Assembly: GCA_964566925.1 (NCBI GenBank)
Contig: CAZMIZ010000001.1
Span: 135,248 to 199,247, forward strand
Reading direction: 5' to 3'
Length of the DNA: 64,000 nt
Source of the DNA: an uncultured Gammaproteobacteria bacterium
GTDB taxonomy: Bacteria; Patescibacteriota; Microgenomatia; PFEM01; DATLAM01
This document shows positions 45,440 through 64,000 of the stretch, piece by piece; within the stretch, counting starts at the first letter, position 1; every line of letters starts with the position of its first letter. The notes under the pieces are model-generated. The model ran no database searches and was not told where the DNA came from. It saw nothing but the letters and a program-made list of their open reading frames with translations. The position numbers and the translations under genes are program-made.

Positions 45440-45440
45440 C

Positions 45441-46517
45441 TTATTCAATCTTAAATTTAGAAGCGGGTGTAGGGCTGATTTGAATAAGCCATTCAGAGGA
45501 GATCGCTGGTAAGTAAAGCGAAACCTCTAAAAGAGTGTCATCTTCAAGGGTGGCTGTTCCTGAGAAAAGATAGAGGGGTTGGAAGTAGGCCTGTTTTTCA
45601 ACACTTTCATAGTAAACGAGTTTGACTGAGGTTAAATTAACCGTTTTTATAGGGTTATTCGGGGCGACGTTTGTTTCCACGCCATCTTGAGTTTTGGCAT
45701 TTAAAATCTGACCTTGGCCATTTTGGACCTCACCCAAGACCACATTCGCCGTCTTTACCGGATAGGTACCTATCTTTTCTTGGTCAAGCTGGCGGAGGAA
45801 ATAATTCAGTTTTATTAACTGACCTTCTTTAGTTACCCAAACCAAGACAACATCTTGAGCCGGGCCAAAACCAATCAAAGGGTAGCCGTCAATCGCTAAA
45901 GAAAAAACAAATTCATAGAGGGTAGCCAAATTGGGGTTGGTTACTGGTTCAAGTTCCATTCCAGTCATGGCGAAATAATTAATTGAGGTAGTAACATCTT
46001 TCTGAGTCAATTCCCAGCTGGCGAGTTTTTCCTTAATTAAACTTTCTGCCTCCTGAGGAGTGATTTCACCAAGAGCCAAAGGGAAGCTACCTTTGAGAAT
46101 AAACTGGCCTGTTTGGGAATCGACCTTAAGGTAATTATCTCCCTCTTGCCAAATGTAATAAGTAAAATCGCCGCTGGCCTGGATCGTGGGTTCGCTAGAA
46201 AAGCCGATTTCGGTGGCGAGCTTAGCAAAGCGATTAACGATCTCTTGGTCTGAGAGCACCTTTACTTGATAAACGCTTAACTGTTGAGGAAATTCATTAA
46301 AAGCCCCCTGAGGAAGAGAAAATTGAAAACTGATTTCCTCTTTGGTTTTAAGCTTATATTCGGTTTCCGGAGCAGGCAAAGGGCCAAAAACCGGGTTGGT
46401 GGGCGGCTCTTTGGTGGTCTGCCGCCAGATTAAAAGAAAGCCCAGGATGGGAATTAAAGCCGCTAAGAGGATAAAGATTTTATATTGACTGATGATCGTT
46501 TTCAACTTTTTTATCAT
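45441..46517 (-). CDS. single-pass membrane protein with extracytoplasmic domain (hypothetical, last gene of the T4SS-like operon)
   Basis: 358-aa ORF with an N-terminal TM helix. Confidence 0.45.
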   Translation of the reverse strand: MIKKLKTIISQYKIFILLAALIPILGFLLIWRQTTKEPPTNPVFGPLPAPETEYKLKTKEEISFQFSLPQGAFNEFPQQLSVYQVKVLSDQEIVNRFAKLATEIGFSSEPTIQASGDFTYYIWQEGDNYLKVDSQTGQFILKGSFPLALGEITPQEAESLIKEKLASWELTQKDVTTSINYFAMTGMELEPVTNPNLATLYEFVFSLAIDGYPLIGFGPAQDVVLVWVTKEGQLIKLNYFLRQLDQEKIGTYPVKTANVVLGEVQNGQGQILNAKTQDGVETNVAPNNPIKTVNLTSVKLVYYESVEKQAYFQPLYLFSGTATLEDDTLLEVSLYLPAISSEWLIQISPTPASKFKIE

Positions 46518-46532
46518 TCCCTTTTCCTTTTG

Positions 46533-49500
46533 TTAAAGGATTGGTGAGCCACTACAATCGCCATACGATTTAAAGAGACATTTTTGAGGGCAACCAGGTA
46601 AATAATTACAAGGATCCTCGGGACTGCCAAGAAAACAAGAAATCGTCCCGCAACTACTGACGCCAAAATGGAGATGGGTACCAGTTGAACGGCCTGAATC
46701 ATCCATGATCCCAATTATATCACTCGAAGAAACCTCGTCACCCTCGTTTTTAGGGAAATTGCAGCGGAACTCGTCTTCTAGATGGCCATAAAGGGTATAA
46801 AGATTCTCACGATGCTGGATAATCACGTAACAGCCATAGCCAGAATGGTACCCTTGTTGGGCAATGACCCCTCGAGTAGCCGGGTGGATATCCGTGCAAC
46901 CATCTGGGGGGATGTCAATTCCTTCATGAAATTCACATTCGTGGGGCGGGAGAGGATCAGCCCGCCAGCCGTAATTACTGGAACAATCATGATAACAAGT
47001 GGGCCAGCCAAAGATCCAGGTTTCGCCAGCGGCATTAATACAAACTGGAGGAGAGGAGGAAGAAAGGTTTTTCCCTGATTGGGTTGTACCCATAACAGTT
47101 AAATTATCACAAAGCATCTCTTCCCCTTGGAGATAGTTACTTAGAGGCGGATCTCTGAGGGCCAAATGGATGGTAATGGTTTGACTGCCACCCGGGCTTA
47201 AGGGGCCAAGTTGAGAACACTCTTCTTGGGTCCAGGCGAAGGTATTGGAAACATGAGTACTAGATGGTTGTTGGGTAGGGTCACACGGAGAAAAAGTTGA
47301 GGTGTCTGGGTCGTAGAGCATGATGAGGGAAACGAACCCGGGTTCTTCAAAACGATCAAAGACCTGGATGTTCCCCAGTAAACCGGCTGCTTCATCCTCA
47401 GGATTATAAGAGTAGGTTAAAGTGTAATCAAGGGCGATGATTTCTCCGTTCTGATCAAAGACAGGCGTGACTGTTTTTTCGATCGGTAATTCCGGCGAAA
47501 TAACATGAGATCTAATTGCCTGCTCTACAAAAAAGGCGCTGGTTATGACATAAAGAGTGAATACGGAAAGGAGAGCTAAAAGCCCAATGCCTGCTAGAGT
47601 GAGAATTGAGGCAGAGGTAATTGTCGCGACAATCATAGGAATAGTTTCGTAGAGCCAGTAAGCGACTGCGTCGGGAATAATAAAATTAATGGCGCTAATT
47701 AAACCAGCTTTTAGGGTGGGCCACCACAGAGGTCTGGTGAGGAAGGCGACGTCAATTAAAGTAAATTGGCCTAAATAAAGCGGCCCGGAAAACCAATTCT
47801 GAAGGGCGATTAGGGGTGGCGTGCCAGAGAGAAGATCCATAATTAAAGGGCTGGTTGTGACTATAGGGAAAAGCCAGGGAATAAATCTGCCTAAAAGGGC
47901 AGGGATCCGTCCTAGTTTAGCCAGAAGATTAAGAAATCTAAGAAAGCCTGGGATTTTGCTTAAACCAGTCCTGGCAAAAGGCCACCACCATTCTCGAGTA
48001 GCCCAAGCCCATTGGGCTAGGGCCGGGATGGGAATAGCCCAAAGAGGAATTAAGCCAGCCGTATAGAGAACATAGCCAAGAGCAAGGCCTTTGATGGGGA
48101 AGCGCGCATAAGGATGCTCAGTTAACCAAATAGCTGGTTTACCCACGATGCGCCGAATCCATTTACTGGTAAAATGAGTTGAAGGTTCTCGGAGCCAGGC
48201 AAGCCATCGATCATTTTTGCCAATATCCAGCCAAAATTGATAGAAGTGGCCACTTCCCCCACCAAGAATGATTCCTAGCTGGGGAAACCCAATCATTTCG
48301 CCAACAGCATAACCCAAGACTGTACCAGAAAGAGTATTGAAACTGAAAAAACTCCGAGCGAATTGACCACTAAAGCTAACGGTCATCCGCAGGCCCCTAA
48401 TGGCTGGTGCACCCAAAAATCTTTTTCCAAAAGAGGTTTCGGTTAAGCTTGTCCAAACTTTAGCAAGTTGGCCAAAAGCAAGCCTTTGGGTTAACCGGGC
48501 CACCGTACCCACAGTTAAATCAAGGCCGAGTTTAAGAAGAAGGACTAGGGGACTCCGATCCCAATCTTGTTCCCGCCGCCGGAAAGCCCGACTTAAGCCA
48601 AACCAGAATCTTTTCATAAAAAGACTTTTTGATTTTTGGCTACGGCCGAAGAAATAGTTAGCCCCTCGGCGGAAGGGGGCGGAGCTCGATTGTCCCAACC
48701 AAGCTAAAGGGCTGAAAACTGGTTTCGATTTTCCTGGAGCGTAGAACGCCTCTTTATAGAGGCCCAAACGACCACCAAGACGTCTTTTAACGGCTGTCCA
48801 AAACCGATAGTTAAGTTCAGGAGTGATGTAAATTTTACGAAGAAGCTCACCTTTTTTGAAAGTGTAATCAATGTATTTCAGATGAGCCCATTTTGCTCCT
48901 GGGACTAAAGCTTCCAGTGCTCCTCTAATTGGGTCGATGACGGTCAGGGAGATGGTCCCTCCAATAGGGTTGGTGGCGAAGTATTCGATTTGATTCTTTA
49001 AATAGATTGCTTCTGCGCCAAAGGGGCCCTTTAACGCCTGAATCGTTTGATTAATTGCCCCTTCTTCAGTAGGAATAGCCCAATAAGTAGTTTCCCTTTC
49101 CGGGTGGCCTAAGGGACGGACCTGTATTCGGGGGAGATTATTTTCGTCGACATCAAGAAAAACCTCTTTTGGCAAATTGGGAACCAAAGATTGAAGAAGA
49201 CGACGGTTGATCGGAATGACGGGATTAAGGTAGCGCGAGCCATGACTGAGAAGACTTTTCTTGATCTGGCCGATAAGCTTTGCTCTCTCGTTAGGAGTAA
49301 GGTTAAGAGGTTTAAAAATTTTTTTAACCGCATCTTCAACTCCACTTGCTTCCTCAAAAAGACGAATGGTTAAATCTTCGGCTGTTTTTTGAGCTTCAGT
49401 CTGGGCGGCAGCCATGCTACCTGTTTTTCCTAAAGTTTCGGTGTGCGTTTTATAGAACTGATCATTAACTCTTTGAGCATAATTTCTCCCTAATTTGATG

Positions 49501-50216
49501 GCCAGACGGCGGTGTCTTTCTGGGTAAAAAAGAAGGTCGGGAGTTGCCTCAAGCGCCCAATAAGCCTGGGTTGAATATTTTGTGGCCAGCTCATTAAAAT
49601 GAAGCAAGGGTCCAAGTTCCTCTTGGAGGGCAATTTTTTTAGCTTGTGATAATCCCTTCCAGGCTGATAGCCGGGGCTGGCCAGCCTCATCTAGAAGGTT
49701 TTCTTTTCTAAGGAGATGATAGACACGTTCTTGAATAAGTTCATTTTCTGGGATTTCTGGCTCAACCGGATCAGTAAAATCGGACAGGGCGGCTGATCTA
49801 GTTTTTTCTCTTTGGAAAAAATCTGTTTCGCCAGTTTTTTCCACCCCTTCCCAGCGGTGTTGGTGAGCTTTCTCAACCTGCTCCTCAACGGTCGATTCGC
49901 CAGCCTTTTTTAATTCCCCCTCAATTTTTTTAGCTAGGTGTTTCTGGTGGGCTTCAATCAGATTGCTCAGCTCAGGAGGAAGAGGGGGAAGACTGGGCAA
50001 GAACCCCTTTTTAAAAGAGGCGTCAAGGGCTTTTTCTAATTCTGGAAGAAACTCTGGTTTAATGACCGTAATCGGAGCTTTAATCCCCAATTCACGGGCC
50101 CAGAGGGCGAGATTGGCTTTTGCCTTATTTTCAATTTCTTTAGGAACATCTTTTAGCTGAAGACCTCTGATTAATCGCCAAAGGCGATAGTATTTTCCTA
50201 AGATTGCTTCATCCAT
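46533..50216 (-). CDS. giant polytopic membrane protein with C-terminal Cys-rich region and M23 peptidase domain
   Basis: 1227 aa. A soluble N-terminal region of about 600 aa, about 10 TM helices, then HEGIDIP ... HSGYGCYVIIQH ... GRSTGTHLHFG, which are M23 HxxxD/HxH motifs. Confidence 0.7.
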   Translation of the reverse strand: MDEAILGKYYRLWRLIRGLQLKDVPKEIENKAKANLALWARELGIKAPITVIKPEFLPELEKALDASFKKGFLPSLPPLPPELSNLIEAHQKHLAKKIEGELKKAGESTVEEQVEKAHQHRWEGVEKTGETDFFQREKTRSAALSDFTDPVEPEIPENELIQERVYHLLRKENLLDEAGQPRLSAWKGLSQAKKIALQEELGPLLHFNELATKYSTQAYWALEATPDLLFYPERHRRLAIKLGRNYAQRVNDQFYKTHTETLGKTGSMAAAQTEAQKTAEDLTIRLFEEASGVEDAVKKIFKPLNLTPNERAKLIGQIKKSLLSHGSRYLNPVIPINRRLLQSLVPNLPKEVFLDVDENNLPRIQVRPLGHPERETTYWAIPTEEGAINQTIQALKGPFGAEAIYLKNQIEYFATNPIGGTISLTVIDPIRGALEALVPGAKWAHLKYIDYTFKKGELLRKIYITPELNYRFWTAVKRRLGGRLGLYKEAFYAPGKSKPVFSPLAWLGQSSSAPFRRGANYFFGRSQKSKSLFMKRFWFGLSRAFRRREQDWDRSPLVLLLKLGLDLTVGTVARLTQRLAFGQLAKVWTSLTETSFGKRFLGAPAIRGLRMTVSFSGQFARSFFSFNTLSGTVLGYAVGEMIGFPQLGIILGGGSGHFYQFWLDIGKNDRWLAWLREPSTHFTSKWIRRIVGKPAIWLTEHPYARFPIKGLALGYVLYTAGLIPLWAIPIPALAQWAWATREWWWPFARTGLSKIPGFLRFLNLLAKLGRIPALLGRFIPWLFPIVTTSPLIMDLLSGTPPLIALQNWFSGPLYLGQFTLIDVAFLTRPLWWPTLKAGLISAINFIIPDAVAYWLYETIPMIVATITSASILTLAGIGLLALLSVFTLYVITSAFFVEQAIRSHVISPELPIEKTVTPVFDQNGEIIALDYTLTYSYNPEDEAAGLLGNIQVFDRFEEPGFVSLIMLYDPDTSTFSPCDPTQQPSSTHVSNTFAWTQEECSQLGPLSPGGSQTITIHLALRDPPLSNYLQGEEMLCDNLTVMGTTQSGKNLSSSSPPVCINAAGETWIFGWPTCYHDCSSNYGWRADPLPPHECEFHEGIDIPPDGCTDIHPATRGVIAQQGYHSGYGCYVIIQHRENLYTLYGHLEDEFRCNFPKNEGDEVSSSDIIGIMDDSGRSTGTHLHFGVSSCGTISCFLGSPEDPCNYLPGCPQKCLFKSYGDCSGSPIL

Positions 50217-50251
50217 CGTTATGAATAACTATAGCAGAAATTAATAGAGGC

Positions 50252-52177
50252 TTAAACTCCCCTAGCTTCGGCTGTTTCTGGGAATTTTTCTGGCTCAGAA
50301 GGAGTTTTCGCTTCTGAAGTCTGGACTGCTCCTGGCGCTTCTTTTGCGGCCTCAATTGCTTTTCTTTTGATTTCTCTCATCGCCAACAGCTCTTCTGGCT
50401 TAGAAGTAATCAATTGGTGTTCGTTGGGGGAGGCCACGACTCGGATCGCCACGTGGTTGGGTCCAGCAAAAAAGAGACCTTCGCCGATGTCCGCTGCTAA
50501 CAGAAGGTGTTTTTCTCCTTCAGAGAGATAGAAAACCTCGGCTACTTGGTCAATGGCGGCGGCCGACATTTTCATCAAGGTTTGGATTGAGGAGTTTTGG
50601 ACAATCGCCTTGCCGTACTCAGAAGCAAGAAAATCCTCAGCGTCCTGAGTGATGGTAGTTAAACCAAGATAATATTTCCTTGCCCTTTTAGCAATTGAAT
50701 AAAGGAAGTTAGCCGAATCCGGATACTTCATTAGATACCAAGCCTCGTCAACCACCAAAATCCGTTTCTTCATTTCTTTTTTGATTTTCGTCCAGATATA
50801 GTCGAGGATAATAAACATGGCAATTGGCCGTAAAGTATCTTCCAAGTCTTTAAGAGAAAAGACAGTAAAGGGGCTTTTAATATCTAGATTGGAGTGTTGA
50901 TCAAAAATGCCGGCGAAACTGCCTTTAACGAACTTTTCAATCCGATCAGCCAGGGAGATCGCTTCTGGTTCTTCCATCCCGCGCAGAGCCTTGTAGAGAT
51001 CCTCCATTAATGGCGGCTCATTTTTCTGGGTAGCTGGGTCCGGGGTGATCCCTTTCATTTTGTAAGTTAAAACTAGAGCTCGATCTAGAGTAGCCTCTTC
51101 GCTAGGCGAAAGCTGCCCCATAATTACTTTAAAAAGTGAATGAAGAGAAAGAATTTTCAGACCGAGTTCGTTTTCGCCTTCTTCATAAACAGCGGAAAGA
51201 TCAAAAGGGTTGATTTTGGCTTGGCTGCCAAAACCAAAACTAATAAATTCCCCACCCACCGCTTCAGCTAAGGGCTGATATTCGGCTTCAGGATCAATAA
51301 TGAGAATTTCACTATCAAACATCAGGGAGCGGAGGGCTTCTAGTTTAACCAGGTAAGATTTACCGGAGCCAGATTTGCCAAAAACAACCGCGTTGGCGTT
51401 TTCCATGGTGAAGCGATCAAAGATAATCAGCGAATCATTGTGCTCGTTAATGCCGTACATGATTCCCTCATTGGCGGTAAGCTCGCTTGAGGTAAAAGGA
51501 AAAGTGGTGGCCAAAGAGGTTGTGTCCATGTTCCGGGTGATCATCAGCCGATCATAACAAGTAGGCAGGGTAGCTTTGAAGCCCTCTTCCATCTGAAGAG
51601 TGGCTTTTTTAGAAATAATTAAGAGCGAACCTAAGGTTGATTCGACTTGTTTAGAAACCTGGTCGAGTTCTTCTAAGGTTCCAGCCGGGATGGTGATGTA
51701 AAGGCCGAATTGGAAAAAACGCTCCGCCCCTTTAACTAGCTGTTCTTGCAGTTTCCGGGCGTCTTCTAGTTTTGCTTTAGTGGCAGGATCAACAATTCTT
51801 CCTCTTTGGGTATCTGATTGGATTTCGGCTTCCATTTCACCAATTTTACGCCGCAGCTCATCTAAAATTGATCTCCCTTCAACCGGATAGACATACATCG
51901 AAATATCCAATGAGTGATCAAAATTGATTAAAGGGGCGAGCCAATTGGCGGAAACAAAGCGGGGATAGCCAGCCACGAAAAGGGTCCGGAAAAAAGTATT
52001 GCCGATTTTAACGTGATTAAAGTCCACCTCTAAAGCTGGCGGAGCAATCAAGTCCTGAATTTGGACCATTCCTTTGCCCAGGCTTTCCGTGGGAGGCAGC
52101 TTTCTCTCTCCATTAGGAGGGGTTCCGGCTGACTGGCCTTTTGGAGCGGTTTTGGTTTTTAGGAAAGGTAAGCGCAT
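50252..52177 (-). CDS. VirB4/TrbE-family type IV secretion ATPase (ATPase core)
   Basis: Walker A VVFGKSGSGKSY, Walker B RILVVDEAWYL, a TTITQDAEDF motif, and the N-terminal CagE/TrbE/VirB domain start FFRTLFVAGYP. Confidence 0.8.
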   Translation of the reverse strand: MRLPFLKTKTAPKGQSAGTPPNGERKLPPTESLGKGMVQIQDLIAPPALEVDFNHVKIGNTFFRTLFVAGYPRFVSANWLAPLINFDHSLDISMYVYPVEGRSILDELRRKIGEMEAEIQSDTQRGRIVDPATKAKLEDARKLQEQLVKGAERFFQFGLYITIPAGTLEELDQVSKQVESTLGSLLIISKKATLQMEEGFKATLPTCYDRLMITRNMDTTSLATTFPFTSSELTANEGIMYGINEHNDSLIIFDRFTMENANAVVFGKSGSGKSYLVKLEALRSLMFDSEILIIDPEAEYQPLAEAVGGEFISFGFGSQAKINPFDLSAVYEEGENELGLKILSLHSLFKVIMGQLSPSEEATLDRALVLTYKMKGITPDPATQKNEPPLMEDLYKALRGMEEPEAISLADRIEKFVKGSFAGIFDQHSNLDIKSPFTVFSLKDLEDTLRPIAMFIILDYIWTKIKKEMKKRILVVDEAWYLMKYPDSANFLYSIAKRARKYYLGLTTITQDAEDFLASEYGKAIVQNSSIQTLMKMSAAAIDQVAEVFYLSEGEKHLLLAADIGEGLFFAGPNHVAIRVVASPNEHQLITSKPEELLAMREIKRKAIEAAKEAPGAVQTSEAKTPSEPEKFPETAEARGV

Positions 52178-52180
52178 TGT

Positions 52181-53062
52181 TTATCTTTTTTTAACTGTTT
52201 TAATTAAATTGTCAATCTGCCGCTGAAGGGCCTCGCCTTCCAGAGGGGGTTGACCACTGGCCGGCGGCTCCCTTTTTTCTGGTTCAGAAGAAGGGTTGGG
52301 TGAAGATGGGGTTGGTTGAGGCGAAGGAGCTGGGGGTGTTGGGCTTAATGGTTGAGGCGGAGGTGATGATTCAGGCGAGGGAGCTTCTAAAGCTGGCTCC
52401 ACTAAAGGGGTTTTGTATTCAGAGGCAGCGGTAATTTTTTGTCCTTGAGTTTCCGGGTTATAAATAGAGAAGAAGAGCTCAATTAATTCCTGGCTGCTTA
52501 GCTGATGAGTTCTTAGACCTAATCGGCTGAGGAGGCGGATCAGGTGATCTCTTTTGGGGTAAAGATTGGTTTTGGCTCGCTCAAGGATATAGTCTTTAGG
52601 AAAAGGAAGGCCCTTTTTCTTTTTAAAAATGGAAGTGGCTGCTTTAGTGGCGCCTAGCTCCAGAGCAGTCATCGGAATGACAATATAGAACTTTTTATCC
52701 AAAACTTCATTTTGCTTCACGGTTTCTGCAACGAAGGCTCGATATTTTTGGATCTGTTCAGCCAGGAGGGGTTCCTTTTTTTTCTTTTCTTGTTCCTCCA
52801 AGAGCTTCAGATAGTTGGAAATATCTTTTTTAATGGAACGAATCACAATTTGGATCGGAAAGGTAAGTGAATTAAGAAGGCCAGCGTAAGCATAGATGGT
52901 GGCGTCTTGCTCTTTTTCCGAAAGCAAACCAAAATTGATGGCAGTCGTCGCCAAGACCAGACAGACACCACCGTCTTTAAGGACCACCAGGTCATCTTGA
53001 ATATCCTCAATATCCAAATGCTCTTGACTAGTCGCTCGAATAGGAATTTTGGTAGGATCCAT
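52181..53062 (-). CDS. VirB4 N-terminal-domain-like protein with Pro-rich tail (in frame with the downstream ATPase ORF across one TAA)
   Basis: DLVVLKDGGVCLVLATTAINFGLLSEKEQDATIYAYAGLLNSL resembles the N-terminal region of Gram-positive VirB4 homologues. Its stop TAA (52181-52183) and the ATG of the next ORF (52175-52177) are separated by one codon in the same frame. Confidence 0.4.
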   Translation of the reverse strand: MDPTKIPIRATSQEHLDIEDIQDDLVVLKDGGVCLVLATTAINFGLLSEKEQDATIYAYAGLLNSLTFPIQIVIRSIKKDISNYLKLLEEQEKKKKEPLLAEQIQKYRAFVAETVKQNEVLDKKFYIVIPMTALELGATKAATSIFKKKKGLPFPKDYILERAKTNLYPKRDHLIRLLSRLGLRTHQLSSQELIELFFSIYNPETQGQKITAASEYKTPLVEPALEAPSPESSPPPQPLSPTPPAPSPQPTPSSPNPSSEPEKREPPASGQPPLEGEALQRQIDNLIKTVKKR

Positions 53063-53063
53063 A

Positions 53064-53112
53064 ATTCTAGAATTTCTAATATCTAATTTCTAATCAATTT
53101 CTAATGATCAAT
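53064..53112. repeat. array of TTCTAAT-type short repeats, inverted relative to the ATTAG repeats at 53521-53552, bracketing the four-helix-bundle gene
   Basis: gaatttctaat atctaatttctaat caatttctaat on the left, and aattaggttaattagagattaggtc on the right (reverse complement of ctaat x3). Confidence 0.6.
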
Positions 53113-53144: not shown

Positions 53145-53519
53145 TTACTTTTTCTTTAGTTTATTTATTATCGAATTAAAAATTAAGTTTAGCTCTTTAG
53201 CTTCTTGCCATAATGTTTTTGCCTCTTCCTTTAGTTCTGGGACAGCAATAGGAATCATTCTTAACCAATGTTTTGACTCTCTTGATTCCTTTTTACATAT
53301 ACCGATTTTATGGCCAAAGTCTCGTTTAGACTCAGCGTCGTCGGCCTCACAGTAGTTAGCTCCAACACTGGTTCCTGCTTTAACAAGTTGAGTTATTAAC
53401 GGGGTCGTTATCGGCATCTTGGGTATTCTATTGGCAAACTTAATAATATTTTCGCCAAACCTGGCGGTTCTCTCTTCTAAATCGAATTTTTTACTTTTAG
53501 TTATTTTGTTATTAGTCAT
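53145..53519 (-). CDS. four-helix-bundle protein (23S rRNA intervening-sequence protein / Avd-like family)
   Basis: ARFGENIIKF ... QLVKAGTSVGANYCEADDAESKRDFGHKIGICKKESRESKHWLRM matches the TIGR02436/PF05635 family. Confidence 0.75.
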   Translation of the reverse strand: MTNNKITKSKKFDLEERTARFGENIIKFANRIPKMPITTPLITQLVKAGTSVGANYCEADDAESKRDFGHKIGICKKESRESKHWLRMIPIAVPELKEEAKTLWQEAKELNLIFNSIINKLKKK

Positions 53520-55146: not shown

Positions 55147-58100
55147 TTGTTAGGAGAAGAAATGCCTGAGGAAAGTCAAGAAAAAGGAATGATGCCAGGA
55201 GAAAAAAGTTTTGGCCGTCCTCATCACCCAGAGGCGAAGCCCACCATGGGTCTCCCAGGCCAGCCTGAAAAAGGGGAAAGATACTTTGCTACCTTGAACG
55301 AATTTAGAGAGGCTCTTGAAGGAATTCCCGATGGGTTTAAAAAGAAAGCGAATCGTTTAAGAAGGAATCTTCGCTCAGCCATAAAAAAGAGTGAAGAAGA
55401 AAAGGTCGGGGATATTTTAAAAGAAGTAGACGGATTAGTAGAGAAAGAGCCAAAGCTGGTCCAGTGGTCAGAATTGATGGAACAAGAGGCCACCGGGGAA
55501 GTCCAACCAGGGGAATCAAGCGAAAAGTCGGTCGGAGAGATAGTCGAAGAGCCGCCCCAAAAAGCGAAACCAGAAGACATTCGGATGGTTCCGGACGCAA
55601 TCTCTGACGAAAGAATGGAAGACGATGAAGAGGTCCTAGTTGATCCGCGAACAGAAAAAATGAAGTTCGTTGAGAGATATCCTCTGTGGGTGGAAGAAAC
55701 AACCAGAAGCGTTGCCGAAATTCGGGGTCAATATTTCAGATTTTTAGCCGGCATTGGTGCCCGCCAGCCAGTTCCAGGTCAAGGAATTAATGATTCTGAA
55801 TGGGAAGAGATTGCCAGATATACTGCTGAAATAGATTCAATTATTCGGAAAATTGGGAGAAAGGAGAGAGGAGAAAGAACGGCTGAAGAAAAAGGAGAGC
55901 TTAAGAGGGCACAAAAGCTTAAACGGATGGCTGGCGCTTATTACCATGAGCTTGAGTTTTATCACCGATTTTGGTACGGAGAGGAATCAGGAATCGGTAA
56001 GGAAGTGAAAAGATCTAAAGAGGGATCAAGACTTCTTTTGATTGACCAAATGGCGGTTCTTTTTACTATTCCTGAAGTGGCGAAAGCCTTTAAAGAAGAA
56101 AAGGGCTATAAAAGTGATGCTGAGTTAGTTGATGAGGTTAATGATCCCTATGGCTGGCGAAGACTGGGACATCACCTTCGCCGTTATTCGTGCACCCCGA
56201 TGTATCGGGACGCTTATGAGGCGGGGGCGAAGACAGCTAAACCTGGTGAACCGATTAAACCGGGGTTTGGTCTTAGCTACGAGTATAGTCTTTTTGGCAT
56301 TTACTTTACTGGGAGATGGGCGGAAAAAAACAATGCCAAATACGCCAAAGTTCTTCGAGTAGAAGATGCTGATGGCAATCTGATTATTGATCTGGGGAAA
56401 TTAGGAGCCACCTATGATATGTGGACTACCCCTGCCAGACTAGAGTTGTATGTTCTTTTTTGGGAGCATTTAGGAAAAAGAAACCAAATTAGACTCTCTG
56501 CTGGGAGGGGAAGAGAATGGCTAAACAAGCACGAGGAGCAGCTTTATTCCAAAAAAGCAAGCGAAGGGCTGCGAGATCTTCTTTGGAATTATCGAGATAA
56601 AGAAAAAGTCCTTAGAGACCGGATTGGCGAAATTGATAAGAAAAAGGAATCAGAGGGGTTATCCGCTGAAGACGAAGAAGAGCTTCAACAGCTCCAATCT
56701 AGCCTTCAAGACCTTCTAGCGGAGCAGGAAAGGCTAGTTGGATTCTCAAATGAGGAGATTAAAGAGTTTCGGGAATTACTAATGAAAAAAGCAATTAATA
56801 GAGAACAACTAAGAGAAGATGAAGAGGAGAGCCTGGCAGAGCTTAAAAAGACAATCGGAAACGTGATGCTTAGAAATATGATTAATCGAGACTTAGGTTT
56901 TGACCCCTCTGAAAGAGACTTTAATCTGATTGCTATTTTTAGCGATCCCTTGAGTCGGCACGAAGAACTTACGCCCAATGATATTTTAACCAACCTCTTA
57001 GTGGATGTCCGGAGGATGGAACAAACCCAGGACGCTTTAACAGCCGGAAAAGAATGCTTTATCGCTAAACCTTCATTTGAAATGATTCTTGACATGGAGT
57101 CGGAGGTATATGCTCATCTTGGTTATTTTCCTTGGTTAAGGGAGAGACAGATATTTGCCCTGAGAGAGCTTGTTTCTAGATTATATTTAGCCGGGGTTAT
57201 TAACACGATCAGGTTAAGCGGTACTCACCTTTTTGAAGAAGAGAGTAAAAAAATTTATGATAGTTTGAAGGCAAAGGCTAATGTAGGTCTTCACGCCGAA
57301 GGTTTGAAAGCCACTTATGGAATAGATTTTACTGATCCCGACCTCAAAGACGGCGCATCGCTTGCTGAAGTAATCAGATGTCTTAAGCTAGTTCATAGAG
57401 GGAGGTTAAATGCAATTTATGAACAAAGAAGAGAGCAATGGGTGATCAATGTTTTAGAGAAAGGGGTGGCAGCAGAAGCCCACGAGAAGGTGCGATTTCT
57501 TAGCCGATTCAGATTTTCTGATTATGTCTCTTTTGAAGCGCGGATTATTGAAGAACCAGTGCTTAACGCTATGGGGTGGACCAGGGAAGAAAGTCTAGAG
57601 AAAGAAAAAGAACGGTTTCGAACTCGCGACCTTTGGTTAGCCAAAAAAGGCCAACTTCCTGGCGATGACGGCGTCTTTATATTTAGCCGTAATCAGGCGT
57701 TAAAACCGGGTTGGGAGAGGTTCGCGAGAGAGAAAGGGGAAAGTGATCGAAGGAAAGAAGACGGCAGGTGGATTTATGGTTATCGCTACGAAACCGATAA
57801 ATTTGAAAAGGTAGGCTATGTAACCGACGAAAACCACGTTTATCGAACTATCGCCTGGGAGGATCCAATCCAGAAAAGCTTATTTGAAGTGGAACAGCTG
57901 ATTTATTCCAAAAATTACGAGATTTTGAGTAAATATATTGATGAACACTCCCCGGAGATAATTGATGATCCCAACGAATGGTTAACCCCTCCTCAAAGGC
58001 AGAATCTGATTAAAGATCACCTCCGCCGGATCAGTATTGATCCTGACCGAGCCGAAGTTTTAATGAAGAAATATTCTTGCACCAATGCCGATTGCTGGAT

Positions 58101-58455
58101 TTGGACGGCCAAAAGGTTGACCTTTGGACGTCTGGCCCCCGAACTTATAGCTAAAATCCCGATTGTTGGTCCTCTTGCCAGAAATGTTAATATTGCCGGC
58201 ATTGGACTTTCTGGCTGGATTGGTGCGGTAGCCCAATTTGGCCTTCCCAGGGTCGCCACCTATTTGACCGGTAATCCTATCGCGATCGGCACCGGGGTTT
58301 ATTTTCTCCAGTTAGGGCTTATCTCTTTTGTTACTAGTCCTCTGGTGCGAAGAATGGCGTGGCTTAGCACCATTCCAGGGACAAATTTTAGGTTAAAAGG
58401 CCTCCTCCCAATTTATTGGGAGCCTAAAGGAAAGGTAAAAGAATATGAGGGTTAA
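55147..58455 (+). CDS. large hypothetical protein with C-terminal TM hairpin (divergent from the T4SS-like genes)
   Basis: 1102 aa, Glu/Lys-rich, with no recognisable catalytic motifs. Two C-terminal hydrophobic helices. Confidence 0.5.
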   Translation: MLGEEMPEESQEKGMMPGEKSFGRPHHPEAKPTMGLPGQPEKGERYFATLNEFREALEGIPDGFKKKANRLRRNLRSAIKKSEEEKVGDILKEVDGLVEKEPKLVQWSELMEQEATGEVQPGESSEKSVGEIVEEPPQKAKPEDIRMVPDAISDERMEDDEEVLVDPRTEKMKFVERYPLWVEETTRSVAEIRGQYFRFLAGIGARQPVPGQGINDSEWEEIARYTAEIDSIIRKIGRKERGERTAEEKGELKRAQKLKRMAGAYYHELEFYHRFWYGEESGIGKEVKRSKEGSRLLLIDQMAVLFTIPEVAKAFKEEKGYKSDAELVDEVNDPYGWRRLGHHLRRYSCTPMYRDAYEAGAKTAKPGEPIKPGFGLSYEYSLFGIYFTGRWAEKNNAKYAKVLRVEDADGNLIIDLGKLGATYDMWTTPARLELYVLFWEHLGKRNQIRLSAGRGREWLNKHEEQLYSKKASEGLRDLLWNYRDKEKVLRDRIGEIDKKKESEGLSAEDEEELQQLQSSLQDLLAEQERLVGFSNEEIKEFRELLMKKAINREQLREDEEESLAELKKTIGNVMLRNMINRDLGFDPSERDFNLIAIFSDPLSRHEELTPNDILTNLLVDVRRMEQTQDALTAGKECFIAKPSFEMILDMESEVYAHLGYFPWLRERQIFALRELVSRLYLAGVINTIRLSGTHLFEEESKKIYDSLKAKANVGLHAEGLKATYGIDFTDPDLKDGASLAEVIRCLKLVHRGRLNAIYEQRREQWVINVLEKGVAAEAHEKVRFLSRFRFSDYVSFEARIIEEPVLNAMGWTREESLEKEKERFRTRDLWLAKKGQLPGDDGVFIFSRNQALKPGWERFAREKGESDRRKEDGRWIYGYRYETDKFEKVGYVTDENHVYRTIAWEDPIQKSLFEVEQLIYSKNYEILSKYIDEHSPEIIDDPNEWLTPPQRQNLIKDHLRRISIDPDRAEVLMKKYSCTNADCWIWTAKRLTFGRLAPELIAKIPIVGPLARNVNIAGIGLSGWIGAVAQFGLPRVATYLTGNPIAIGTGVYFLQLGLISFVTSPLVRRMAWLSTIPGTNFRLKGLLPIYWEPKGKVKEYEG

Positions 58456-58475
58456 AATAGAAAGAGGAGGTTTCA

Positions 58476-59561
58476 ATGGCTGAAGCAATTACCGAAACAA
58501 TGGGGCCAGGTCTGGCTTTTAGAAGAGAGACTCCGGAGAGTCAGGCCCTTAAAGGTTTAGAAGCGAAGATTGGGAGAATAAAAGAAAGAGTTTCTTTTTC
58601 AGACCTGCAACAAAGACTAAAAAGTTTTATTAAAAAAGATATCAGCAATGATCCGGAGATAGAAGGCATAAGTCAACAATTATGGGAAGTAGTTGATGCC
58701 AGGCTTAGGAAAGAGGAAGATCATTTAAAGACAAATGATCTTCCCAGGGTGTTTCGAGAAATGGTAGGAAGTCTTTTGCCCGGAGCCTCTCTCGAAGGTA
58801 AAGAGCAACTCCAAGAATTATTGGTTAAACTTTCTGAGTTTGAAGCAAGGGGAGTTATGGGAGAATTAAGCCCCGATCCTCAAAAAGCTTTTGAACAACT
58901 TTCAGGTTTAATTTTAGGAAAAGAAGATGGAGAGCAATTCGTTAACACCATGACAGAGGTGGCCGCTGCAACAGAAAAGCCCTATCCAAAACCGAAACCA
59001 CCCAGTCTTCCTACCGGAGAAAAAGGTTTTTTTGGGAAAGGTAAGGGCCCGGGTCTTAGATATTATAGATTGATGGTTATAGGGATTGCTCTGATGACCT
59101 GTTGCGCCGCTCAAGGAGCTTGTCCTGGTCTAAAGATGTATCTTGATGTTCGAGGAAGAACGGAGGCAGATTCGGGTACCGAGGCCCAAGAACAAGCCGG
59201 GATTAACCAGGCGGCCCTAGATGTAGTTGATGGAAGATATCCTTATGAATGGCTAGAAAGAAGTGAAACCTTAAGGGGAGAAGAAGGAGAAGAGTTTGCG
59301 AGAAGTGTTCTCGAAAGAACTCGAGACTTGGTCATGGCGGACCCAAATCGGTTAGACCAAATGGATGCCGCCTGGATTGGCCGCCTCATCCATGAGTACG
59401 GGGAAGAGGAAGGCTATAATCTAATTTTTAATCTTGATCAGGTTGATGATTTAGAAAAACGGGATCAAGTAAGCCAATATTTATCTAGTGGGCGGTACGA
59501 AAGTTCTTCTCCTCCAGGCGGTAGCAGAGAAGCAAGCCAGGGAAGCAATGGCAGCGGTTGA
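58476..59561 (+). CDS. hypothetical protein with central TM helix
   Basis: 361-aa ORF, 20 nt downstream of the previous gene. Contains CCAAQGAC next to its TM helix. Confidence 0.45.
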   Translation: MAEAITETMGPGLAFRRETPESQALKGLEAKIGRIKERVSFSDLQQRLKSFIKKDISNDPEIEGISQQLWEVVDARLRKEEDHLKTNDLPRVFREMVGSLLPGASLEGKEQLQELLVKLSEFEARGVMGELSPDPQKAFEQLSGLILGKEDGEQFVNTMTEVAAATEKPYPKPKPPSLPTGEKGFFGKGKGPGLRYYRLMVIGIALMTCCAAQGACPGLKMYLDVRGRTEADSGTEAQEQAGINQAALDVVDGRYPYEWLERSETLRGEEGEEFARSVLERTRDLVMADPNRLDQMDAAWIGRLIHEYGEEEGYNLIFNLDQVDDLEKRDQVSQYLSSGRYESSSPPGGSREASQGSNGSG

Positions 59562-59642
59562 AGGGCAACGCCAAGTTAGAACCAAGGTAATGGCCAAGAA
59601 AGCAGATTTGAGAAGGAAAACTTCTTTTGGACAGAAAAGGGT

Positions 59643-61034
59643 TTAAATTCCCGCCGCTAAACCGCCAATAAGTGGTAATCTCCCAATCACTCCGCGCAGA
59701 GTTTGACCAGCCGCGGCAAACATTGGTGGACCAGGCCTTTTTTCAAAAGCCTGATCAATCATGTCGGGGACAGAGGGAGAGATTAAAAGAATTCCTAACC
59801 CAATAATATTAGGAATAATGCTTGGGTCTGTAAAGATATCAGCAATCATTCTCGGAGCCTGGAGGTCGCTCATGGTAACCTGAACATTCCAAGAAGGCGC
59901 CTGACTTATAATTGCCCCTATGGCTAAGACTCCATAAACAGCTGGAAAGGCCAAAACCGATTTGATTAAAGTTTTAAGCCACATCCAGGTCACATTGCCT
60001 CTTCCCGGAATGGCTGAAAAAAGGAGCAAAATGGGCCCAAAAATCGTGGCTAAAAGAAAAGTCACGTAGCGGCTCAAAAGGGCGAAGAAAAGTTTAAACA
60101 TGGTAAAAACCACGACCAAGGCAATAATAAAAGTAAAAATAGAACCACCGCCACCCGGTATGATGGAAAGAATGCCCTCAACCAGCCTGACTAGCGCTAA
60201 AAGTCCTGTTGGCGGGATTGAGATTTGTTGGGGATTAAAACTTAAACCGCCAAAGGCATCATTAAGGAGCTCAAAAAGATTATAATTCCCTGGCGGGTAA
60301 GCAAGAGCCGCACTTTTAATTAAAGTGTTAATCAAGGCCAGCCCAAACTCCATCAGATCGAACATTAGTCCAGCCAAAGCGTAACTGAAGGTAATCAAAA
60401 GAAGAGCAATTACTAGTTGAGGTAGGGCACTTTGAATTGAAGCTACCGTTTGAGGATCAATTTTGGCCCGAAACATAATCATAAAACCGACGGCAACGAA
60501 GATGATAACCAAAAAGAGATAAGCTAGGCTTCGGAAAAGTTTCCAAAGATCAAGGATGGGTTCAAGAGCATGCCAGCCTGTCCCCTGAGCGTAGGCTGGC
60601 TTGACTAAACCTAGATTTTGACCCAGATCAGCTAAATAATCAACCGATGAAGCCGGAGGAGAAGAATAAAGTCCATTAACCAAGGCGATGGTTCCATCTA
60701 AAGCACTAGTGCCCGAAGCTTGTCCTTCAAGAAGCGGAACACCTGTCAGGGCATGAGTGCCGGCATTTCCCGCCTTGTCTACCAAAAAACGAGTAAATTG
60801 ACCGAGATTGATGTCTTCTGCTTCGTACTCTTCTTTTATTTCTTGGAGAAAAGTTGGTAATTGGCCTTCAGAGGGAACATCAACCGGACTTGGAAGATAG
60901 GCGGCCTGAGCGATTTTAACCAAAGGAATAATTAAAAGGAAAAGGAGAAGAGAAACAAAAACTATTTTTCGGTTGAAATTTTTGGGCAGCGACATAACTG
61001 CTTTTAAGTTAACATCATTGACTGTTTTTTGCAA
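59643..61034 (-). CDS. polytopic membrane protein, VirB6/TrbL-like candidate
   Basis: 463 aa with a signal-like N-terminus and about 8 TM helices. The size, topology and T4SS gene neighbourhood suggest a VirB6/TrbL analogue. The assignment rests on topology and context and carries no sequence-family evidence. Confidence 0.4.
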   Translation of the reverse strand: MQKTVNDVNLKAVMSLPKNFNRKIVFVSLLLFLLIIPLVKIAQAAYLPSPVDVPSEGQLPTFLQEIKEEYEAEDINLGQFTRFLVDKAGNAGTHALTGVPLLEGQASGTSALDGTIALVNGLYSSPPASSVDYLADLGQNLGLVKPAYAQGTGWHALEPILDLWKLFRSLAYLFLVIIFVAVGFMIMFRAKIDPQTVASIQSALPQLVIALLLITFSYALAGLMFDLMEFGLALINTLIKSAALAYPPGNYNLFELLNDAFGGLSFNPQQISIPPTGLLALVRLVEGILSIIPGGGGSIFTFIIALVVVFTMFKLFFALLSRYVTFLLATIFGPILLLFSAIPGRGNVTWMWLKTLIKSVLAFPAVYGVLAIGAIISQAPSWNVQVTMSDLQAPRMIADIFTDPSIIPNIIGLGILLISPSVPDMIDQAFEKRPGPPMFAAAGQTLRGVIGRLPLIGGLAAGI

Positions 61035-61043
61035 GTGGTTTAT

Positions 61044-63851
61044 TTATTCCTCCTCTGGATTTAAGGCTTCCAAAACCCATTCTTTTGCCTTTTGAATGCC
61101 GCCTAAATGAGGGAAATAGAATTTCCAGGGTTCGCCTGGGGTGATCGAACCCCCAGTGTAACTGTAGTTAATGTAGCTATGGGCATCAAGGTCTTCAAAA
61201 GTTGACTCGGTTTCCGGCCGGAAAATGTTAAAAAGCCCCTGGAAAGAATCGGTAGTCTGTTCCCAGATTTGGTCAAGATAAGGATGAAGAAGGTCGACCT
61301 TAACATCCCGGTGAACATGGCGGGTTTCGACATTGCGACATTCAGGGTTAAGGAGGTCTCTTTCGCCAGTGGCCGGATCAGTAAACCAAACACAAGGGCC
61401 GGTGTAGTTTGGGTTTTCGAACTGATCAACCGCCTTCAGGTCAATAAAAATCGGATCACAGCAGATGGTGTCATTCGGATTATTATCGCTGACACTTTCA
61501 TATTCACAGGCTGGATAAGGTATTGGTTCGGCCAGACCGCATTCACGTGGCTCAGGCATTGGCCCAAGACTGCCACAGCAGGCGGTTCCATTTTCATCTA
61601 AGGTCATAGAGCAACCACCCGAGACAACATAATGAAGATTAATATTCTCTGTAGTTACAGAGACATTGACGTTAGCACCTGGATCGGTGGGACAGCTAAA
61701 ATAATAGGTCATGCTTGGACCAAGAACATTCATAAACCCAACTTGCTGGCCGTTAATATAGGTGTGGAGGTGACCACAGCCGTGGGCGTCGATAACCACT
61801 GTTCCTGATCCTCCAGAACAACAGATAGCCCTAATGGCTAAGTTGCAACAACAGTCGCCATCGGGGTCGCAAGCATCCCATTCTCCCTGGGCCAAAAGGG
61901 TTTTTTCGCCTAGAACCTGAGGATTGCTCGAAGCTAGAAGAATTTTTTCTGATGCTTCCTCTTCCTCCTCCTCCACCCAAGGAAAGAGCAGTTTTTGAAG
62001 CTCTTGGGTGACTTCAAAAAGTCGGGCGAGATGGGGCACTTTTTCTTCCTGGACAGGCGGAATGACGTCAGCAATATCCTTTCTTTTGACATTAACCGAG
62101 GCAATGACTTGACCAGGGGAATCTTCCCGGGTAAACATCGGGACGGCCGCCCAAAGTTTTCCAGAAGGAGTTCTTTTCCAGCTCTCATAAGCTTTTTTCC
62201 AGTCTTCGTAGTCGTCTGGCTTGGCTTTAACCGGTAGTTCAGGCGGAGGCTGGATTTCACTTAATTGCATTGAATAACCACCATGTTCGATGAGGTAGTC
62301 ATGGATAATCTCGGTGCCTTCTTTAATGTTGCCAGAGAGACTCTTTTTAGCCCGGTCAATCATTTCGTTTTTAAGCTCATCTTGGAGTTCTTTAGGCGCG
62401 AGTTTTCTGAAAACGCCTCCTTCCATCACTGAGCGCTCAACTTCTTCTTGACAAGTTCCTTTTTCTTCACAACTCTCAAGATCGATATCTTGACCATAGT
62501 AGAAGGCAGTACCCTCAAAATAGTCAGCTAAATATTTTTGAACATCCTCTTCGCCCTTTTTACCCACAAAAGGAACGGTGACATCATTGGCATCAATGGT
62601 AATAATGCCGCCCCAGTCTTTTTCAACCCAATGTTCACCAGTTGGTTCACAAACAAAGTCCGAGTCCTCCCATTTCCAGCTGACGGTATCATGGACCGCA
62701 AAAGTGGTGGCGCAGGCATAGGTTAAAGGCGGCTCTAAAATACAAGCATCACAAGGGAGTGGACGGGAATCAGAGTCGCCTCCTTCAGAGGGGGTACAGG
62801 TCATCCCAAGAGCCCCTCCATCATACATGTAAATGGTTCCCCCGCCAAAAGTACTTAGTTCTAAGATGATGATTTTCCCGTCGGCGGTGATGATGACCAA
62901 AAGGGTAATGTCTGGGTGGCCATCACCATCCAAGTCAAGGAAAAAAGAAGTGGTGATAAATTGAACGTCAGGGAAAAGGTCGTGGTTAGCCATAAACTCC
63001 TGAATAATCCCTTCCATAATTTTGACCCATTGCTTTAGATCTTCTTTATCTTGGAGTAACCCACCATGATAAAGAGGGCCCAATTCGGTGATGATGAAAT
63101 TGTTGGGAACCCCTCTTTCTACTAAAAAATCAATCAATTTTTGGTATTGTTTAGAGACCGCTTGGGCATTTTCGCCATAGATGGTTAAGGCGGCTCCATC
63201 AACCAGATCAGCGATAGTCAGATTACCGGAAACCACGGTATTCAAGATGGTATCCAAAAAAGGAAAATCTACTTGGCCTGTGTGGGTAGCCATTGGCGGA
63301 ATTAAGATATTAAAATTTCGATCTGAAATACCCGCGCCCAAAATAAAAGAGGCTAAGCTGTTAGCGAAACTCTTAGCATCAGCCGAACCACCCCACTCAT
63401 AAGAAAGATCCGGCTCATTACCAAAATAAACATTGACTGGTTCGGAAAACTGGATTTGGCTGAGGGCCCAGGCTAGGGTTTCGCCTGCCACTTGAGCTTT
63501 TTGGGGGGAAATTCTCGTCCAACCTTGGCTGGGGCTAAAGTAATCAGAGGAAACCCTGATAATGGGGATGAGATTGTTTTCTTTCATTGCCTGGAGGTTT
63601 TTGAGAAGACTTTCTCTATTCTGAGGGCTAAGATCGGCCGTGCTATAGATAATGGTAACCGGGATTGAATAACCAGCACAACCGTATTGGTCATATTGGT
63701 TTCTAATTTGATCGTAATTTGAGGGATCAATATTGCCGGCAATCTTGGGGCCGACAACACCGCAAGTTTGGGCCAAAACTGGAGAGGGGATAAGCTGCCA
63801 ACCGAAGAAAAAAACGAAAACGAAAAAGATAGTTAGGCAGGGTTTTTTCAT
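61044..63851 (-). CDS. secreted large Cys-rich protein with N-terminal glycoside-hydrolase-like (NEPD motif) domain
   Basis: Signal peptide MKKPCLTIFFVFVFFFGW...A, VYFGNEPDL (a clan GH-A-like acid/base motif), and C-terminal Cys-rich modules (CDPDGDCCCNLAIRAICCSGG). Confidence 0.5.
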   Translation of the reverse strand: MKKPCLTIFFVFVFFFGWQLIPSPVLAQTCGVVGPKIAGNIDPSNYDQIRNQYDQYGCAGYSIPVTIIYSTADLSPQNRESLLKNLQAMKENNLIPIIRVSSDYFSPSQGWTRISPQKAQVAGETLAWALSQIQFSEPVNVYFGNEPDLSYEWGGSADAKSFANSLASFILGAGISDRNFNILIPPMATHTGQVDFPFLDTILNTVVSGNLTIADLVDGAALTIYGENAQAVSKQYQKLIDFLVERGVPNNFIITELGPLYHGGLLQDKEDLKQWVKIMEGIIQEFMANHDLFPDVQFITTSFFLDLDGDGHPDITLLVIITADGKIIILELSTFGGGTIYMYDGGALGMTCTPSEGGDSDSRPLPCDACILEPPLTYACATTFAVHDTVSWKWEDSDFVCEPTGEHWVEKDWGGIITIDANDVTVPFVGKKGEEDVQKYLADYFEGTAFYYGQDIDLESCEEKGTCQEEVERSVMEGGVFRKLAPKELQDELKNEMIDRAKKSLSGNIKEGTEIIHDYLIEHGGYSMQLSEIQPPPELPVKAKPDDYEDWKKAYESWKRTPSGKLWAAVPMFTREDSPGQVIASVNVKRKDIADVIPPVQEEKVPHLARLFEVTQELQKLLFPWVEEEEEEASEKILLASSNPQVLGEKTLLAQGEWDACDPDGDCCCNLAIRAICCSGGSGTVVIDAHGCGHLHTYINGQQVGFMNVLGPSMTYYFSCPTDPGANVNVSVTTENINLHYVVSGGCSMTLDENGTACCGSLGPMPEPRECGLAEPIPYPACEYESVSDNNPNDTICCDPIFIDLKAVDQFENPNYTGPCVWFTDPATGERDLLNPECRNVETRHVHRDVKVDLLHPYLDQIWEQTTDSFQGLFNIFRPETESTFEDLDAHSYINYSYTGGSITPGEPWKFYFPHLGGIQKAKEWVLEALNPEEE

Positions 63852-63854
63852 TTA

Positions 63855-64000
63855 TTTAGGAATTTCGAACTCCGTGACCTCAACTCCAGTAAACTCTTTA
63901 ATAAATTGAAGAATAAACCAGGCAATGATTACCAAAACTAATCCTAAAATTGCGTAGGTGATGGTGTTTTTGGCTGATTCGGTTCCTTTCGGGTCGCCGG
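63855..64000 (-). CDS. small membrane protein, C-terminal fragment (pilin/VirB2-like?) running off the window
   Basis: The minus-strand frame ends ...AKNTITYAILGLVLVIIAWFILQFIKEFTGVEVTEFEIPK*, a hydrophobic helix plus a short tail. Confidence 0.3.

Follow-up and report, generated by a model that had tools for sequence, protein, structure and literature searches.

Type IV secretion systems (T4SSs) of the Patescibacteria (the candidate phyla radiation, CPR) have been described from both genetic and comparative studies. In Southlakia epibionticum, the T4SS gene cluster SEML1_0006-0019 is essential; pilins are present in it, and no coupling protein or relaxase is recognisable (Wang et al., 2023; PMC10633639). 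A survey of 3,035 genomes showed that the VirB4 ATPases of Patescibacteria form a monophyletic clade nested in the mating-pair formation class MPF-FATA, that TrsD and PrgI are abundant, and that Microgenomatia and Saccharimonadia are particularly rich in VirB2 arrays (Quinonero-Coronel et al., 2025; PMC12102498). According to the same survey, virB4 of Paceibacteria and Microgenomatia is located close to dnaA/dnaN, few VirB6 proteins were found in Microgenomatia, VirB8 is nearly undetected, relaxases occur in only 103 of the genomes, and VirD4-like genes are found in most of them, mostly far from virB4. The same picture is given in a FEMS review (PMC12857230), and possible T4SS pili have been observed at the parasite-host interface (bioRxiv 10.64898/2026.06.21.733656). 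Here, we describe a locus of this kind, located at positions 45441-64000 of a 64-kb stretch of a Microgenomates (Patescibacteria/CPR) chromosome; this stretch is referred to below as the window.

The locus has in common with the T4SSs of the Patescibacteria clade, whose 2025 survey included the class Microgenomatia, a VirB4 that appears to be of the monoderm (MPF-FATA) type, a separate TrsD, a PrgI/VirB3-like protein, tandem divergent VirB2-like pilins, a peptidoglycan hydrolase encoded directly after virB4, the lack of an adjacent relaxase or type IV coupling protein (T4CP), and the dnaA/dnaN neighbourhood. That it is a T4SS of the Patescibacteria type is very likely. On the evidence presented below, it is probably a chromosomal, vertically inherited system derived from MPF-FATA monoderm conjugation machinery, which no longer has a relaxase or coupling protein beside it, possesses a pilin array, and would serve host attachment or exchange and not conjugation. 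It differs from what the survey reported in that, where VirB6 was scarce and VirB8 hardly ever detected, the window contains at those positions a 463-aa family with a VirB6/DotA fold and a 358-aa PepSY/YycI-like family. In addition, a Cys-rich 935-aa protein and a hypervariable gene slot, occupied in the window by a gene for 1102 aa, are, to our knowledge, not treated in the 2023 and 2025 papers (PMC10633639, PMC12102498).

The prototype of the MPF-FATA class is the system of pCF10 from Enterococcus faecalis. Its gene order prgH-prgI-prgJ-prgK-prgL, encoding respectively VirB6, VirB3, VirB4, a large membrane-anchored wall hydrolase and a VirB8-like protein, is collinear with the order 463-aa protein, PrgI, (TrsD), VirB4, 1227-aa protein, 358-aa protein of the window. 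However, PrgH, PrgK and PrgL have no detectable sequence similarity to their counterparts in the window, and VirB4 is split only in the latter. The two systems are also opposite in their accessory functions, because pCF10, which lacks pilins, encodes the VirD4-like coupling protein PcfC together with a relaxase and adhesins, while the reverse is true of the window locus.

The closest matches of the window VirB4 on plasmids are all from Bacillota or Actinomycetota (31-39% identity). The best of them (38.8%, E = 2e-130) is encoded on a megaplasmid of Pontibacillus sp. ALD_SL1 (NZ_CP062975.1; 344319-370094, locus L083), typed as non-mobilizable, in a module that contains two pilins homologous to those of the window strain, a 779-aa protein with nine transmembrane (TM) segments, a 116-aa VirB3-like protein, a 274-aa TrsD-like protein matching that of the window at E = 2e-30, VirB4, and a 1050-aa M23 protein. 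Unlike the window locus, this cluster resides on a Bacillota megaplasmid and is not adjacent to an origin, and phmmer detected in it no homologue of the 463-, 935-, 358- and 1102-aa proteins. The idea that this '898-kb plasmid' might be a misassigned small genome was discarded, as its first 40 kb resembles an ordinary Bacillota megaplasmid. A second relative is found on a non-mobilizable megaplasmid of the actinomycete Embleya (NZ_CP108778.1; 269283-288992, locus L085), whose VirB4 is 36% identical and is directly followed by a T4CP gene and a replication-relaxation gene. As far as sequence comparison can tell, these plasmid relatives are consistent with an ancestry in the conjugation machinery of monoderms, the DNA-processing part having been lost later; the Pontibacillus and Embleya clusters may represent either the donor lineage or a transfer from CPR.

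The signature motor of the apparatus is a 641-aa VirB4 ATPase (50252-52177, minus strand). The initial annotation, made from the sequence alone, had recognized this gene as virB4, and the assignment holds: the protein is classified by the NCBIfam model NF045971 (CD1110 family) with 400.9 bits, well above the curated cut-off of 325, and matches Pfam P-loop_TraG (E = 5.6e-28), AAA_10 and CagE_TrbE_VirB. The Walker A (GKSGSGKS, residue 267) and Walker B (ILVVDE, residue 473) motifs are intact. The CD1110 and Mbov_0397 models far outscore those for TraC, VirB4/CagE and TrbE (400.9 bits for CD1110 compared with 169.8 for TraC-F and 131.2 for VirB4/CagE). Identity to pCF10 PrgJ is 25% (E = 3e-44), with residues 43-572 aligning to PrgJ 227-772. 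An exact-sequence look-up returned a record only for the 935-aa protein, and none for the 641-aa VirB4 or the 358-aa protein; the real start of VirB4 may thus differ from that of the open reading frame (ORF).

The adjacent gene (52181-53062, minus strand) had been overlooked in the initial annotation. It encodes a 293-aa TrsD-like protein with a Pro/Ser-rich tail, matching NF041427 (TrsD/TraD) at E = 2.8e-6, which is under the curated cut-off of that model. The TrsD-like protein covers positions 129-292 of the Mbov_0397 VirB4 model, and the 641-aa VirB4 covers positions 294-893. Since the coverage of the model is complementary, and since the alignment to PrgJ begins only at residue 227, VirB4 is split over two genes, as described for TrsD. 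Upstream lies the gene for a 342-aa PrgI/VirB3-like protein (53553-54581, minus strand), an identification which had been proposed before and which is borne out by a match to PF12666 with 31.5 bits against a gathering score of 27. The protein has a TM hairpin formed by two helices (residues 35-53 and 59-77), followed by a long Pro/Lys-rich linker and a CarboxypepD_reg-like domain (PF13620, 32.2 bits, just under the gathering score of 32.3). Across the loci, VirB3-like ORFs span from about 190 to 1015 aa, some of the shortest being cut or split; this range of sizes points to a highly variable C-terminal extension.

Homologous loci, the existence of which in relatives had been presented as a test of the initial annotation, are abundant. 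For synteny, ORFs were called and clustered in the window and in 80 related loci (L001-L080), i.e. the best 80 of 331 VirB4 matches, all on contigs of metagenome-assembled genomes. The VirB4 proteins of the 80 Patescibacteria loci are 65-85% identical to that of the window, and the locus is syntenic in at least 80 Microgenomates genomes among the 331 matches. A TrsD-like gene is present in 75 of the 80 loci and a VirB3-like gene in 73, and VirB3-TrsD-VirB4 are contiguous in 71 of 81 loci (the 80 relatives plus the window). The recurrent gene order is pilin array, Cys-rich protein, VirB6-like protein, large opposite-strand gene, VirB3, TrsD, VirB4, large hydrolase and 358-aa family; dnaN and dnaA follow on the opposite strand, and beyond them come rnpA, yidD, yidC and jag. 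About half of the relatives are named as Shapiro-, Curtiss-, Chisholm-, Woyke-, Beckwith-, Gottesman- or Amesbacteria, Microgenomates or 'Patescibacteria group'. Many of the record titles instead read 'uncultured Gammaproteobacteria', 'Pseudomonadales', 'Clostridia', 'Nanoarchaeia', 'Bathyarchaeia' or 'Nevskiaceae'; these titles appear to be mislabelled, the gene content (VirB4 65-85% identical, same synteny) being that of Patescibacteria.

The position of the locus next to the origin of replication, which had also been claimed, is borne out. The 358-aa gene at its end is convergent with dnaN (44315-45439, plus strand; three DNA_pol3_beta domains in Pfam), and the two stop codons are 1 nt apart (45439-45441). 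Next to dnaN is dnaA (42666-44111, plus strand; Pfam Bac_DnaA, E = 2.3e-64), and the gene order continues with rnpA-yidD-yidC-jag. The dnaA-dnaN intergenic region (44112-44314) is a candidate oriC on account of its DnaA boxes and of the GC skew. Perfect DnaA boxes (TTATCCACA) are found at 42665, 44141 and 44228, and a box with a single mismatch at 44282; the cumulative GC skew has its minimum at 42-44 kb of the window. Matches to the box with at most one mismatch are not enriched over the window as a whole (16 found, 12 expected). The clustering of the perfect boxes, together with the skew minimum, places the origin at dnaA, probably in the dnaA-dnaN spacer. VirB4 converges on dnaN in 51 of 57 loci, the median distance between them being 3.1 kb. 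It may be added that transcription of the T4SS operon runs towards the origin, and would be head-on to the replication fork if replication starts at dnaA-dnaN.

Between the pilin array and the VirB3-like gene lies the gene for the 463-aa polytopic membrane protein (59643-61034, minus strand). The true start is probably 13 codons downstream, giving 450 aa, which is the length of both the gene call on a contig of the same strain and the protein P0001. The protein had been described as VirB6-like; this agrees with its fold and has no counterpart at the sequence level. DotA and TrwI/VirB6 are the top fold matches of its model in two programs, although identities to R388 TrwI/VirB6 and Legionella DotA are 10-16% and TM-scores 0.24-0.44. 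No Pfam or NCBIfam match to VirB6, TrbL or PrgH was found, hhalign of the 463-aa family with pCF10 PrgH gave a probability of 0.9%, and PDB profile searches with three alignments (A1, A2 and A3), which included the 463-aa family, returned nothing relevant. What can be said is that the protein is polytopic, has a VirB6-type helical fold and is encoded beside virB3/virB4; judging from the structural model, it is a probable translocon or pilus platform.

Directly after virB4 is the gene for a 1227-aa membrane protein (46533-50216, minus strand) ending in an M23 peptidase domain (PF01551, residues 1096-1187, E = 7.5e-19) with the catalytic motifs HxxxD at 1097 and HxH at 1181. About 550 aa of soluble N-terminal sequence are followed by a Gly-rich, polytopic membrane part and then by a Cys-rich extracytoplasmic region that terminates in the M23 endopeptidase. 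An extracytoplasmic location of the M23 end is suggested by the fact that all 16 cysteines of the protein fall in that same region, C-terminal of residue 978. A large hydrolase gene directly follows VirB4 in 42 loci, and among 25 large hydrolase proteins of relatives M23 is present in 14, CHAP in 5 and YkuD in 1. Because the relatives carry peptidoglycan-hydrolase domains at this place, the 1227-aa protein behaves like the multidomain VirB1-type hydrolases of monoderm systems, so that the proposal of the M23 protein as the counterpart of VirB1 can be maintained. BLASTP revealed no sequence similarity between the 1227-aa protein and PrgK. Across the relatives, the wall-hydrolase head is swappable, and the membrane body to which it is attached is divergent.

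The hydrolase gene is followed by that for the 358-aa protein (45441-46517, minus strand), a bitopic protein with three PepSY/YycI-like alpha-beta domains located at the PrgL/VirB8 position. Members of this family, including the short forms retrieved with an iterated hidden Markov model (HMM), follow the hydrolase gene in 31 of 34 loci, and the pair stays together where it has been relocated upstream of VirB3 (L037, L043 and L057). The comparison of the family with PrgL by hhalign was negative, and the protein did not clearly show the NTF2-like fold of VirB8. The 358-aa gene forms a conserved pair with that for the hydrolase.

At the other end of the locus, the window end cuts a gene of which only the C-terminal 48 codons remain (63852-64000, minus strand), so that the locus extends past the window. 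The translation of this frame ends ...ITYAILGLVLVIIAWFILQFIKEFTGVEVTEFEIPK before the stop. A Logan contig (L081, run SRR14817123) from the same strain, with an identical 935-aa protein, reaches beyond the window end; immediately upstream of its 935-aa gene there is a tandem array of six PF18895 (T4SS_pilin) genes. The tail in the window is identical to the L081 gene at 2317-2694 (PF18895), the last of the six. What had been noted as a pilin-like fragment is therefore the C-terminus of a VirB2-like T4SS pilin gene.

The gene for the 935-aa protein (61044-63851, minus strand) has the pilins on one side and the VirB6-like gene on the other, an arrangement seen in 7 close loci. The initial annotation had described its product as a secreted, Cys-rich protein similar to glycoside hydrolases (GH). 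The first part of this description agrees with the signal-like hydrophobic segment at the N-terminus and with the total of 27 cysteines, while the GH-like character received no support from any HMM: the protein has no Pfam or NCBIfam match, and residues 29-335 gave no match to a GH family even at E values up to 10. About 340 aa at its N-terminus form a variable domain; the C-terminal module, which is Cys-rich and comprises about 575 aa, is conserved. Residues 362-930 align to a homologue (P0151) at E = 1e-92. In P0151, and in no other homologue, a GH5 domain (PF00150, 32.1 bits against a gathering score of 23.5) occupies the equivalent N-terminal position, but it cannot be aligned to the N-terminus of the 935-aa protein. 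The latter is a candidate for a pilus-associated adhesin or a host-wall enzyme.

The slot between the VirB6-like and VirB3 genes is occupied in 28 of 29 loci by an opposite-strand ORF of 587-1385 aa. Sampling of 37 loci yielded 39 ORFs in or beside the slot (for example L015:2349-5660 and L003:5527-7761), which are composed of D, E, K and R for 20-37% and show almost no conservation between genera; ten of the proteins were scanned and contained no Pfam domain except PP2C in one. In the window, the slot holds the gene for a highly charged 1102-aa protein with C-terminal hydrophobic segments (55147-58455, plus strand) and, downstream of it, that for a 361-aa protein with one weak hydrophobic segment (58476-59561, plus strand). 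Both genes are on the strand opposite to the main operon and are lineage-specific. The statement that several large proteins of the locus belong to no known family applies to these two, neither of which has a Pfam or NCBIfam match. The 1102-aa protein has only 7 homologue clusters among 1.84 billion representatives, and the 361-aa protein has no homologue in the 80 related loci. Homology of the former to its positional counterparts was considered and rejected, as phmmer against all locus ORFs found only the protein itself, and so was kinship to a Curtissbacteria slot family (hhalign probability 0.2%). Two slot families (clusters 18 and 48) are linked by an HMM of a C-terminal module with the pattern 'IPGIGPxR ... 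hydrophobic helix ... F.KQ', an HMM which did not detect the module in the 1102-aa protein.

Two further genes that had escaped the initial annotation lie on either side of the VirB3-like gene. They encode 23S rRNA-IVP (intervening sequence protein) four-helix bundle proteins (54627-54998, minus strand, PF05635 at E = 7.1e-23; 53145-53519, minus strand, E = 4.7e-11), which are paralogues with 30% identity. The PF05635 family is sporadic, occurring in 10 related loci at varying positions, and the gene at 54627-54998 is predicted to be a sporadic passenger gene. IVP proteins share their family with the Avd proteins of diversity-generating retroelements. Such a retroelement was looked for at the IVP genes and discarded: the window contains no reverse transcriptase and no template/variable repeat pair, its sole 'RVT_3' match being an RNase H domain. 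All the ORFs named in the initial annotation are present at their coordinates.

All genes of the locus are intact, long and tightly spaced ORFs. Scans for promoters and terminators gave no excess over the shuffled expectation. In Pfam scans of every ORF of at least 100 aa, the rest of the window showed only housekeeping genes, among them those for Met- and Val-tRNA synthetases, glycosyltransferases, GroEL/ES, TsaD, TruB, L25 and envelope polysaccharides, besides a second, small M23 peptidase. The gene for this peptidase (14798-15493, plus strand) and that for a protein with PEGA and SH3 domains (13600-14601, minus strand) flank a tRNA-Cys gene, and have no positional link with the T4SS locus. 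The ORF with which the window begins resembles a UvrD-type helicase, as judged from motifs, outside the Pfam scan.

As regards the functions that would make the locus a conjugative one, the initial annotation had reported that no relaxase, VirD4, VirB11 or integrase was visible. In Pfam scans of the window ORFs of at least 100 aa none of them was found either. Nor is there, within the 64 kb, the adjacent module of relaxase and T4CP that would be expected of an ordinary integrative and conjugative element (ICE), an integrase, or element borders: the window shows no break in GC content or composition and no flanking repeats, the repeat searches being uninformative. It should be noted that the window is part of a contig of approximately 300 kb, and that VirD4-like genes, as mentioned above, are common in Patescibacteria but distant from virB4 (PMC12102498). 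A genuine conjugative system, with relaxase, coupling protein and oriT elsewhere on the chromosome, could be imagined on this basis, also considering that the closest actinobacterial relative, on the Embleya plasmid (36%), has T4CP and replication-relaxation genes after its virB4. Yet the locus has a fixed place in the core genome beside dnaN (51 of 57 loci), with no integrase, flanking repeats or composition break, relaxases are rare (103 of 3,035 genomes), and the distant T4CP is non-essential in Southlakia (PMC12102498), which makes conjugation very unlikely. The loss of relaxase, T4CP and integrase would equally be the mark of a degraded ICE, but a decaying remnant with no current function is most unlikely: ORFs and catalytic motifs are intact and the genes tightly spaced, the orthologous cluster is essential in Southlakia (PMC10633639), and the conservation of gene order and of VirB4 (65-85% identical across the whole class) already largely refutes it.

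A different possibility is that the T4SS runs 'backwards', as Helicobacter ComB or archaeal Ced do, and imports DNA or other nucleic acids, so that nucleotides could be scavenged from the DNA or RNA of the host. Patescibacteria lack nucleotide synthesis. T4SS genes are co-located with comF, recG and radA in the class ABY1 (PMC12102498), and a 2026 preprint reports that a cultivated relative feeds on the RNA of its host and that tubular structures occur where the two meet. VirB4 also gives weak matches to the Ced ATPases (CedB, E = 3.2e-15; CedD, E = 1.9e-5); however, these scores are far under that of CD1110 and equally far under the cut-offs of the Ced models themselves. Moreover, the window contains no competence genes, and in Southlakia deletion of comEC ended competence but not viability, while the T4SS is essential (PMC12857230). 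An import machine of this type seems, on balance, unlikely.

The preferred reading of the locus is still that of a vertically inherited, non-conjugative T4SS for attachment to, or exchange with, a host. The initial annotation had likewise proposed a reduced, non-conjugative T4SS-like machine with an episymbiotic role; the proposal is supported, but restates a published description (PMC10633639, PMC12102498, PMC12857230). Several points weigh against this interpretation. The function is extrapolated from a single species of Saccharimonadia. The VirB6 assignment is one of fold, with low TM-scores and with negative results from hhalign against PrgH and from the PDB profile search, and the 358-aa protein is not clearly VirB8-like. 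The roles proposed for the 935-, 1102- and 361-aa proteins are guesses. As most Patescibacteria have distant VirD4-like genes (PMC12102498), the lack of VirD4 reported here refers to the window. Finally, the probable placement in the Patescibacteria clade is derived from model scores and sequence identities.

From homology, fold, gene order and the genetics of Southlakia, we infer the following working model. The VirB3-like protein would anchor VirB4 at the membrane, with the separate TrsD-like gene providing the N-terminal domain of VirB4. Powered by VirB4, the six pilin paralogues would then be extracted and polymerised on the platform presumably formed by the 463-aa VirB6-type protein. The outward-facing M23 domain of the 1227-aa protein would cut peptidoglycan cross-links to let the apparatus pass, whether through the cell's own wall, that of the host, or both, and the 358-aa PepSY/YycI-like partner may hold or regulate this hydrolase. 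The secreted Cys-rich 935-aa protein might work outside the cell, at the pilus or at the host interface. By analogy with S. epibionticum, which needs the orthologous cluster in order to grow on its host, the machine would be used for host attachment and exchange of macromolecules rather than for conjugation. Protein export, import of host material, or pilus-mediated contact only are the options for what it may transport.

A more specific, and rather doubtful, proposal is that the locus exemplifies a Microgenomates variant of the system, in which a highly divergent protein with a VirB6/DotA fold replaces recognisable VirB6, the PepSY/YycI-like partner stands in for VirB8, and the conserved slot holds giant, very fast-evolving and highly charged proteins, some of them tail-anchored. 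If this were true, the slot proteins might be delivered to the host cell, as T4SS substrates particular to each lineage or as determinants of host specificity.

The locus is real and well conserved, but of a kind already described in the 2023 and 2025 papers. It reveals no new principle, and is a clean, fully syntenic Microgenomates example of the T4SS of Patescibacteria, the first T4SS shown to be essential for its own bacterium. What it adds is fold evidence for the 'missing' VirB6 of Microgenomatia, a conserved pair of genes for the hydrolase and its partner, and a hypervariable slot for large charged proteins. The VirB6-type platform and the hydrolase-partner pair are candidates for components of the Microgenomatia system that escaped the 2025 survey, and the hypervariable slot could hold substrates or specificity factors.

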